This document shows positions 16,257-18,492 of a stretch of DNA of 64,000 nt, piece by piece (position 1 is the stretch's first letter; each line of letters begins with the position of its first letter). The notes below the pieces were generated by a model. The model was not told the DNA's origin, searched no databases, and worked only from the letters and a program-made list of their open reading frames with translations. A program made the translations under genes and the position numbers. The DNA is from Escherichia coli. GTDB lineage: Bacteria > Pseudomonadota > Gammaproteobacteria > Enterobacterales > Enterobacteriaceae. Location of the stretch: the NCBI RefSeq assembly GCF_045037415.1, contig NZ_CP173438.1; one strand, written 5' to 3'.

Positions 16257-16340
16257 GCCTGCTGCGCTACGCTTATCAGGCCTACTAAGTTCCTGAGTTA
16301 CAAACCTTTGTAGGCCGAATCAGGCGTTCATGCCGCATCT
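16257..16340. repeat. REP/BIME-like palindromic elements at the convergent yajR/yajQ junction
   Basis: Two units resembling REP consensus (..GCGCTACGCTTATCAGGCCTAC.. and ..GTAGGCCGAATCAGGCGTTCATGCCGCATC..) in opposite orientation. Confidence 0.7.
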
Positions 16341-16368
16341 GACATGAACAAAGCGCAGGTTGTCGCGA

Positions 16369-16860
16369 TTAATCGCGGAAGTTTTTGAACTGGAACGGCT
16401 GACCCAGATCGCCACCACGTACCATCGCCATGACAGCCTGTAAATCATCACGAGATTTGCCCGTCACACGGATCTCATCGCCCTGAATTTGCGCCTGCAC
16501 TTTCAGTTTGCTGTCTTTGATCATTTTGACGATTTTCTTCTGAGTCGCGCTCTCAATGCCCTGTTTCAGTTTCGCTTCCACAAACCAGGTTTTACCGCTA
16601 TGAACGATATTTTCCGGTACATCCAGTGAACTGCCTTCAATGCCGCGCTTCAGCAACTTGGCACGCAGAATATCCAGCAACTGATTGACCTGGAAGTCGG
16701 ACTCGCTCAACACTTTGATGGTTTTGCTGGCGTCATTCAGCTCAAATGAGGCTTCAACGTTACGGAAGTCAAAACGGGACTCCACTTCGCGGCTCGCGTT
16801 ATCGACCGCGTTACGTGCTTCCTGAAGATCAACTTCAGAGACAATATCGAAAGATGGCAT
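16369..16860 (-). CDS. yajQ: Nucleotide-binding protein YajQ (UPF0234 family)
   Basis: ORF 16369..17028 trimmed to Met57 (163 aa) [22 protein letters not shown]. Confidence 0.85.
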
Positions 16861-16937
16861 CTTTTCCTCTCCCTTCATTTTTGATGCGAAGCATAATACC
16901 TGCAAAGTTAAATAACCAACAGTCCTGCACCAGGACG

Positions 16938-16985
16938 TATCCCTTAATTGTGCATAGTCGCAACAGCATGCACAATTAAGGGATA
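16938..16985. other. Perfect 18-bp inverted repeat (TATCCCTTAATTGTGCAT / ATGCACAATTAAGGGATA) with 12-nt spacer, yajQ/panE divergent region
   Basis: Read directly from sequence; arms are exact reverse complements. Confidence 0.85.
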
Positions 16986-17027
16986 GCCTTATTGAACACC
17001 CGGAGTGGTTGCGGGTGAGGAGGAACA

Positions 17028-18492
<1,465 letters not shown>

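Follow-up and report, generated by a model that had tools for sequence, protein, structure and literature searches.

A perfect palindrome between yajQ and panE of Escherichia coli is a published RNase III processing site that probably also serves as a divergent promoter element

The 64-kb stretch of E. coli DNA that was analysed (the window) contains the genes yajQ and panE, which diverge from a 167-bp spacer. This spacer holds a long inverted repeat and, next to it, a small palindrome, both of which had been singled out in an earlier note made from the sequence alone. The genes and the parts of the inverted repeat are as follows.

16369-16860, - strand: yajQ coding sequence, 163 aa, with its ATG at 16860
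17028-17939, + strand: panE coding sequence, 303 aa, with its ATG at 17028
16938-16955: left arm of the perfect inverted repeat, TATCCCTTAATTGTGCAT, from the repeat search and the sequence
16956-16967: spacer or loop of 12 nt, agtcgcaacagc, the RNA hairpin loop and the central part of the 17-bp spacers of the putative promoters
16968-16985: right arm of the perfect inverted repeat, ATGCACAATTAAGGGATA, from the repeat search and the sequence

The two arms are 18 nt long each, 100% complementary and 12 nt apart, so that the palindrome measures 48 bp in all. The earlier description of the repeat, of the small palindrome GTCCTG-CAC-CAGGAC (16922-16936) and of a 167-bp divergent region bounded by the two start codons was accurate in each respect. 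Among perfect inverted repeats of at least 12 bp with loops of 3-20, the palindrome is alone in the 64-kb window. Shuffling the window 20 times produced stems of at most 12 bp, and ~1.7e-5 stems of 18 bp are expected analytically, which bears out the earlier view that the repeat is much more than chance. When up to 3 mismatches were allowed, the half-site matched the window twice, the two matches being the arms themselves, and two matches were obtained in 0/100 shuffles. The 167-bp yajQ-panE spacer as a whole was predicted to fold far better than its shuffled versions on the two strands (z = -5.0 and -5.5). The stem of the palindrome comprises 18 perfect pairs plus 2 extra G-C pairs inside the loop, with hairpin energies of -27.6 kcal/mol on the yajQ strand and -27.1 kcal/mol on the panE strand, and it provides the continuous duplex of ~20 bp (about two helical turns) that an RNase III site requires.

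Of 5426 complete E. coli genomes, 5424 carry the palindrome, each at a single locus; the second match position reported for each genome is the palindrome matching itself. In 5383 of these 5424 genomes all 48 bp match exactly. The whole spacer is 100% identical in many E. coli strains, and it is less than 99% identical (at least 2 positions differing) in 2229 genomes; in a B2 example, all 3 SNPs of the spacer lie outside the palindrome. As judged from this comparison of sequences, the invariance of the palindrome within a variable spacer is a purifying pattern. Phages and true plasmids yielded no copies or relatives of the palindrome, and five matches labelled as 'plasmid' belong to records of 1.2-4.9 Mb, which are therefore chromosomes. 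An Rfam scan of positions 16300-17600 at a permissive E-value returned two chance-level matches only, none of them on the palindrome. A dispersed repeat of the REP, BIME, ERIC or MITE type was rejected, because the palindrome is single-copy both in E. coli genomes and in the window. The search for further half-site copies that the earlier note had proposed thus revealed no dispersed family, in agreement with its remark that the repeat does not look like a REP. An intrinsic terminator formed by the large stem was likewise rejected, as the consensus scan did not flag this stem and it has no T-tract; here, too, the first impression had been correct.

The palindrome is an already published RNase III processing site in the long leader of the yajQ mRNA. 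Gordon, Cameron and Pfleger (mBio 2017, PMC5371410) compared the RNA-seq coverage of the wild type with that of an rnc deletion mutant and listed position 444573 of NC_000913.3, 'Intergenic (panE-yajQ)', among the novel RNase III sites, with read ratios of 48 and 32 for the rnc mutant over the wild type. Because panE starts at 444515 and yajQ at 444683 in NC_000913.3, a window position equals 461543 minus the v3 position, and this conversion places the site at 16970, within the right arm. Purified RNase III cut in vitro transcripts of the panE-yajQ spacer from either strand with the partner RNA absent, and 5' RACE showed that the cuts fall in a long predicted intramolecular duplex (PMC5371410). 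The T7 templates used by Gordon et al. cover the spacer both ways ('panE' from 16815 on the + strand, 'yajQ' from 17166 on the - strand); their primers GG421 and GG423 have no verbatim match in the window. Since both template strands were cut in vitro, either strand is cleavable, which is no proof that a natural panE transcript carries the stem. No evidence for a natural panE-strand transcript containing the stem was found. The authors note that a complementary hairpin could form on the panE strand too (PMC5371410).

When its 5' UTR is cleaved, the yajQ transcript becomes more stable and has a half-life of ~6 min in the wild type versus ~3 min in the rnc mutant (PMC5371410); this two-fold effect comes from one study. 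The authors proposed that the remaining 5' hairpin slows RNase E (PMC5371410), and a later review-type discussion places yajQ among the mRNAs that RNase III regulates positively through a mechanism yet to be elucidated. RNase III is, accordingly, a described post-transcriptional regulator of yajQ, and the earlier statement that no regulator has been described for either gene is out of date. By contrast, the suggestion made in the same note that the repeat may be a stem-loop in the 5' UTR of the yajQ mRNA coincides with the published site, at which cleavage stabilises the mRNA (PMC5371410).

The transcription starts around the palindrome were taken from Cappable-seq, which captures triphosphorylated ends only (Ettwiller et al. 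2016, PMC4782308; U00096.2 coordinates, where a window position equals 460767 minus the v2 position), and from maps of RNA-seq coverage and double-stranded RNA. The features that matter for this purpose are the following.

17127 (v2 443640), - strand: distal primary yajQ start, inside the panE coding sequence; Cappable-seq RRS 35.9; 267-nt leader with the whole palindrome
17134-17139, - strand: -10 of the distal promoter, TACAAT, at -12 to -7, made by the panE codons TAT-TGT-AGT
16940 (v2 443827), - strand: primary yajQ start 'P-pal' at the outer edge of the left arm; Cappable-seq RRS 43.2; 80-nt leader
16922-16936, - strand: mini-hairpin GUCCUG-gug-CAGGAC, at +5 to +19 of the P-pal transcript
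16885 (v2 443882), - strand: proximal yajQ start; Cappable-seq RRS 63.7; 25-nt leader without hairpins
16898 to 16893, - strand: -10 of the proximal promoter, TATTAT, within the invariant GGTATTATGC; promoter span 16885-16898
16865 (v2 443902), - strand: minor start in the yajQ direction; Cappable-seq RRS 2.3
16983-16984, + strand: 5' end of the panE mRNA (Conway v2 443783 = 16984, quoted second-hand); leader of 44-45 nt
16931-17129 (v2 443638-443836): immunoprecipitated dsRNA MS-115 of Lybecker, class 'Divergent', quoted second-hand

All four Cappable-seq starts in the yajQ direction fall on purines, which supports the mapping of the coordinates. The distal start at 17127 lies upstream of the palindrome on the yajQ strand and the stem is therefore transcribed into RNA, whereas the proximal and P-pal promoters give yajQ mRNAs without the full hairpin. 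Table S1 of Huang et al. 2020 (PMC7373196), in which the data of Conway et al. are quoted, gives a + strand operon of U00096.2 that starts at 443641 and shares 142 nt with the panE operon opposite, the overlap ending at 443783 (16984 in the window). The same paper relates that the seed of MS-115 (Lybecker et al.) spans v2 443638-443780, or 16987-17129 in the window, and that p19-captured 22-nt RNase III duplexes tile positions 16990-17124. On these second-hand coordinates, the MS-115 seed and the p19 duplexes are the sense/antisense overlap of the panE and yajQ 5' ends, and the extension of MS-115 beyond this overlap, to 16931, covers the hairpin at 16938-16985. The panE 5' end rests on the RNA-seq coverage of Conway and on the dsRNA boundary of Lybecker at 16987, both as quoted by others, and it could instead be the RNase III-processed end of a longer transcript. 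Mapping of the transcription starts, which had been proposed as a check on the palindrome, has thus been achieved for yajQ by way of primary Cappable-seq starts, and for panE it comes down to an RNA-seq 5' end at ~16984 only. The supplements of the SMRT-Cappable-seq study do not mention yajQ or panE, and the supplement of Romero 2014 contained no relevant match.

The centre of the palindrome is at 16961.5, and the yajQ start at 16940 mirrors to position 16983, which is an A. The reported panE 5' end at 16984, as quoted second-hand, lies within 1 nt of this mirror position. Both strands read TTGTGC-N17-CACAAT-N6-A(+1), with the following placement.

16948-16953, + strand: panE -35-like TTGTGC, in the left arm
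16971-16976, + strand: panE -10-like CACAAT, in the right arm
16975 to 16970, - strand: -35-like TTGTGC of yajQ P-pal, in the right arm
16952 to 16947, - strand: -10-like CACAAT of yajQ P-pal, in the left arm

Each arm thus carries a heptamer, ATTGTGC / GCACAAT, that reads as a -35 on one strand and as a -10 on the other, and the N17 spacing on both strands falls within the 16-18 bp that separate the hexamers of a sigma-70 pair. The hexamers are weak (3/6 for TTGTGC and 4/6 for CACAAT), and a strict consensus scan called no promoter in the spacer. In the yajQ direction, the Cappable-seq start at 16940 is located 6 nt past CACAAT. In the panE direction, the RNA-seq 5' end at 16984 and the dsRNA boundary at 16987, both from secondary quotation, are near the predicted start. 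The published 5'-end maps combined with the sequence suggest that the arms appear to be two superimposed, outward-firing promoters for yajQ and panE. Since both promoters would share the same 44 bp and fire outward, polymerase would be able to occupy only one of them at a time. The perfect symmetry of 18 bp exceeds the needs of two such promoters: it runs 9-10 bp past the promoter-like hexamers, and the parts of the arms beyond the hexamers are TATCCCTTA and TAAGGGATA.

The transcript from P-pal begins with AUAC, which is immediately followed by the mini-hairpin. On the yajQ strand, the mini-hairpin is also the first structure downstream of the stem that RNase III cuts, and we infer that it is the obvious candidate for the protective 5' hairpin proposed by Gordon et al. 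(PMC5371410). Towards its 5' end, the product of RNase III would be expected to carry the same structure as the P-pal transcript, which fits the proposal of a protective hairpin.

For a view of the distribution of the element, 80 genome loci were compared together with nine more that were collected via PanE homologues. The divergent panE-yajQ arrangement is kept throughout the Enterobacterales loci compared. The perfect stem was present only in E. coli, E. albertii and an Escherichia-like genome (L030, L094), being identical in all three. Six sequences of the Citrobacter freundii complex contain a homologous element in which 12-15 of 19 pairs are Watson-Crick pairs. A block of ~55-60 bp is missing at the exact site in Salmonella (125-nt spacer) and in C. 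amalonaticus and C. farmeri (113 nt), as well as in Enterobacter, Leclercia, Lelliottia, Kluyvera, Pseudescherichia and others. The hexamers of Citrobacter are TTGTTC-N18-TACAAT toward yajQ and TTGTAC-N18-AACAAT toward panE. Within a genus, neither the hexamers nor the distance between them changes. The six Citrobacter sequences differ from one another in the spacer sequence and in the outer arms; their outer half-sites have decayed, and only the -35-like and -10-like hexamers with their spacing are kept. Formal pair counts over the aligned elements put the paired cells at 75.9% for the yajQ strand and at 87.2% for the panE strand, since a C·A mismatch on the former is a G·U pair on the latter. 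The Citrobacter stem pairs better on the panE strand and, with 12-15 of 19 pairs, it is a poor fit to an RNA role on the yajQ strand in that genus. The two genera differ by two double-sided changes in the inner stem, which leave it paired, and neither measure of covariation was convincingly above shuffles in this set of seven distinct sequences from two genera only. Across the Enterobacteriaceae, which the earlier note had suggested aligning, most genera lack the element. That note had regarded absence from close relatives as a reason to doubt a dedicated regulatory element; by this standard the element would fail as a conserved regulatory site, yet experiments show that it functions in E. coli.

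Where the element is missing, the yajQ strand carries AGTATAGCG, whose panE-strand reading is TATACT, or TATAAT in the case of Salmonella. At this position E. coli has TGCACC, forming half of the mini-hairpin, whereas C. freundii, with its imperfect stem, still has an intact TATACT. TATACT/TATAAT would be the ancestral -10 of panE, and the mini-hairpin would derive from this ancestral block. The element itself looks like a recent insertion specific to its lineage, by which the ancestral panE promoter of Escherichia seems to have been displaced. The distal -10 TACAAT depends on the codon TGT for a Cys of PanE, which is found in this setting in Escherichia only. The other genera examined have TGC, resulting in TGCAAT without the A at -11, with the exception of Kluyvera, where TGT occurs in a different context. 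The co-occurrence of the perfect stem with the distal promoter in Escherichia is suggestive, with two lineages only to compare.

Altogether, these observations are probably best explained if the 48-bp palindrome is a dual-use element of lineage-specific origin, which acts as an RNase III hairpin in RNA and as a pair of divergent promoters in DNA. As published experiments show, the distal yajQ promoter inside panE (start at 17127) produces the 267-nt leader, in which the palindrome folds into the ~20-bp hairpin. RNase III cuts this hairpin (16970) and severs the coding part from the upstream leader, which is antisense to the 5' end of panE and is itself a target of RNase III. The processed yajQ mRNA lives about twice as long (~6 versus 3 min), an effect that the original authors credit to the remaining 5' hairpin slowing RNase E; the mini-hairpin at 16922-16936 would be this stabilising structure. 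At the DNA level, the palindrome may drive initiation both at 16940, where yajQ has its primary start, and at ~16983/4 for panE, and the two superimposed promoters could then never be occupied simultaneously. The Escherichia element may have taken over from the ancestral panE -10, which would have decayed into the mini-hairpin, and a synonymous change from TGC to TGT in panE may have created the distal promoter and thereby made the palindrome an RNA substrate. As a complete sequence of events, in which a palindromic insertion brought mirror promoters that replaced the ancestral panE promoter, a codon change then installed an RNase III switch, and panE and yajQ became coupled at both levels, this remains a tentative proposal that may well be wrong in some of its steps. 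What is new here are the superimposed mirror promoters and the lineage-specific insertion, both of which we propose on the basis of published 5'-end maps and comparative sequence.

Other readings of the palindrome have to be weighed against this dual use. The palindrome could matter as DNA only, being a bidirectional promoter, with the hairpin and its cutting by RNase III as side effects, not under selection, of read-through from the distal promoter. This view would account for the conservation of hexamers and spacing across genera while the Citrobacter stem decays, for a covariation that is not significant (seven distinct sequences, two genera) and for the absence of the full hairpin from the proximal and P-pal mRNAs. 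We nevertheless consider it unlikely, as RNase III cleavage measurably alters the half-life of the yajQ mRNA (PMC5371410), the perfect stem is found together with the distal promoter that transcribes it and that is confined to Escherichia, pairing in the inner stem is preserved between the genera through two double-sided changes, and the symmetry extends 9-10 bp outside the hexamers. It is less probable still that the true substrate of RNase III is an intermolecular duplex between the 5' end of the panE mRNA and the long yajQ leader, the hairpin being incidental. As quoted second-hand, MS-115 is classed as 'Divergent' and the p19 duplexes at 16990-17124 correspond to the overlap rather than to the hairpin. 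However, single in vitro transcripts were cut without a partner, at the long intramolecular duplex (PMC5371410), and position 16970, where cleavage occurs in vivo, is not part of the overlap at 16984-17127. Cleavage of the hairpin and of the intermolecular duplex probably operate side by side. With respect to the mini-hairpin, it appears very improbable that it serves as a weak intrinsic terminator or insulator that halts read-through from upstream promoters before the proximal yajQ promoter. Although the consensus scan does flag it on the - strand (6-bp stem, 4 G-C pairs, tail TGTTGGTTAT), this single flagged candidate compares with 0.5 expected in shuffles and is not significant, and its T-tract is interrupted. 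Moreover, the RNA-seq-based operon maps, in the form in which they are quoted by others, carry the distal transcript through to yajQ, and Gordon et al. treat the region as yajQ 5' UTR (PMC5371410).

The idea of a dimeric operator, raised in the earlier note, would make the arms 18-bp half-sites for a DNA-binding regulator common to yajQ and panE-yajL. The half-site centres lie 30 bp apart with 18-bp arms, which is atypical for bacterial operators. The perfect dyad symmetry within a divergent control region and the near invariance of the palindrome in E. coli would suit an operator, and a low-resolution genomic-SELEX peak of NtrC (41% intensity, v2 443846 = ~16921) is situated in the spacer, adjoining a TGCACCA half-site in the mini-hairpin. 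No NtrC box TGCACCAnnnTGGTGCA was found in 16861-17027, however, with up to 3 mismatches for the 17-mer or up to 1 for the core, so that an NtrC operator was rejected in spite of the gSELEX peak, and the available part of the NtrC study does not name the spacer among its gel-shift probes. Apart from this peak, no regulator site was reported here in the literature searched. Most genera with this gene pair, Salmonella and Enterobacter among them, lack the element, and Citrobacter retains the promoter-like hexamers only, with degenerate outer arms. With no motif match, a patchy phylogeny and such degenerate arms, an operator strikes us as distinctly improbable. The least credible reading of all is that the palindrome is a functionless relic, left behind by a hairpin-mediated duplication or by a small mobile palindrome of a REP, BIME or MITE-like type. 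Palindromes easily arise and easily vanish, and an indel of ~55-60 bp that is patchy across lineages behaves as such a relic might. Yet the palindrome sits at just one place in each of 5424 E. coli genomes, has no relatives in phages or true plasmids and no Rfam family, shows no visible target-site duplication at its boundaries, and is active according to the published cleavage and transcription start data.

As a dual-use element, the palindrome resembles several known systems in part. Like the RNase III hairpins in the rnc and pnp leaders, in adhE and at R1.1 of phage T7, it forms an intramolecular 5' UTR duplex of ~20 bp, and it shares with them rnc-dependent cleavage in vivo, cleavage by the purified enzyme and an altered mRNA stability. 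The processed mRNA is more stable for yajQ as it is for adhE, ahpC and pflB, whereas cleavage of the rnc and pnp leaders triggers decay. Unlike these leader hairpins, the palindrome has a perfect stem that overlaps promoter elements, and one of three yajQ promoters yields the substrate. Its likeness to overlapping divergent 5' transcripts (the 'Divergent' class of Lybecker et al. 2014, the 5'-overlap clusters of Huang et al. 2020 and excludon-like arrangements) consists in the ~142-nt overlap of panE and yajQ and, as quoted second-hand, in the immunoprecipitated dsRNA MS-115 and the 22-nt p19 duplexes; the palindrome differs from them in that it lies just outside the overlap and its duplex forms within one molecule. 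With symmetry-driven or back-to-back divergent promoters it would have in common that two outward starts arise from one symmetric stretch, the symmetry explaining divergent initiation. The symmetry-born bidirectional promoters of Warman et al. (2021, Nat Microbiol) reportedly have overlapping -10s and starts ~18 bp apart. Measured against this definition, the starts here are ~43 bp apart and each -10 overlaps the -35 of the other promoter, so that the palindrome does not belong to that type; in addition, its symmetry covers 18 bp per arm. REP/BIME and ERIC sequences are similarly extragenic and able to form RNA stem-loops, but the palindrome is single-copy and not G+C-rich, and its place is between divergent promoters, not at 3' ends.

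The palindrome is thus no undiscovered operator or riboswitch, but a catalogued RNase III site. If the dual use proposed here is true, one 48-bp sequence would couple panE and yajQ both by exclusive binding of RNA polymerase and by post-transcriptional control. It would be a compact case of one sequence that is read twice, as bidirectional promoter DNA and as an RNA processing hairpin, and also a dated case of promoter turnover through a small insertion between very close genera. The locus may offer a clean model for the distinction between DNA-level and RNA-level selection on palindromes, and possibly one for the coupling of divergent genes, here pantothenate synthesis and YajL on one side versus the nucleotide-binding protein YajQ on the other.

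Lastly, some further observations concern the neighbourhood of the palindrome. Two promoter or operator motifs were assessed by eye and rejected: a sigma-54 promoter, for which the GG-N10-GC spacing is not present around TTGCA, and a CRP-like TGTGC...GCACA, in which the spacing is 16 and not 6. A paper on Salmonella Dublin that names both panE and yajQ deals with an IS1 insertion in panE and is unrelated to the palindrome. A weak naRNA4-like Rfam match is located at 16313-16349, downstream of yajQ, and this is most likely the place of REP40a, the REP that is associated with yajQ.

The leader that runs antisense over the start of panE is driven by a distal yajQ promoter located within panE itself, the -10 element of which arises from a synonymous choice of Cys codon in panE (TGT, not TGC). 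Among the close relatives examined, this TGT-made -10 is restricted to Escherichia. Two features are relevant here:

17134-17139, yajQ strand: -10 TACAAT of the distal yajQ promoter, inside panE codons 35-38
16991-17330 (U00096.2 coordinates 443437-443776): cluster S-46 of p19-captured dsRNA

Cluster S-46 runs past the distal yajQ transcription start at 17127 and extends about 200 nt deeper into panE. This implies that there is further antisense transcription in panE, from a putative start other than 17127.

The promoter nearer to yajQ is marked by strict sequence identity in the aligned spacers:

16890-16899: invariant 10-mer, GCATAATACC on the + strand and GGTATTATGC on the yajQ strand

This 10-mer was unchanged in all 18 enterobacterial spacers of the first alignment, and it contains TATTAT, the -10 element that serves the yajQ start with the highest score, at 16885. 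The opposite strand of the same 10-mer reads CATAAT, which, judged by its sequence, is a possible candidate for an upstream -10 element in the panE direction. If it acts as such, panE would have a leader of 124 nt that includes both hairpins.

The panE leader also carries a small hairpin, which is kept across the Enterobacteriaceae and is followed immediately by the ribosome-binding site:

16997-17017, + strand: small hairpin, CACCYG-N9-CRGGTG
17018-17023, + strand: panE Shine-Dalgarno sequence, AGGAGG

Read on the yajQ strand, the stem is CACCCG...CGGGTG in E. coli, whereas it is CACCTG...CAGGTG in most genera; the change is compensatory. A mixed form is found in P. vulneris, E. cloacae and C. 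amalonaticus/farmeri, and this form pairs (G.U) on the panE strand only. This pattern suggests that the hairpin adjoining the panE ribosome-binding site is a real RNA structure.

The mini-hairpin (16922-16936) also varies naturally. A T-to-C change at 16927 in B2/APEC strains (APEC E16002, locus L084) keeps pairing on the yajQ strand only (U.G), whereas a G-to-A change in E. albertii (L030) keeps it on the panE strand only (G.U). Because these variants point in opposite directions, the population sequences favour neither strand's RNA as the user of the mini-hairpin.

Two rare strains, E. coli 13TMH22 (L083) and E. coli LT883142 (L085), carry IS3-family insertions in the yajQ/panE spacer. One of these, IS1203-like, lies near 16977 and splits the palindrome's right arm; the other, at about 16913, leaves the mini-hairpin on one side and the proximal yajQ promoter on the other.

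Lastly, a repetitive element lies beyond the other end of yajQ:

16313-16349, downstream of yajQ: weak Rfam match to the REP-derived naRNA4 (15.9 bits, below threshold)

This match is most likely REP40a, an element linked to yajQ in a 2023 paper. It is the real REP of this locus and bears no relation to the palindrome.
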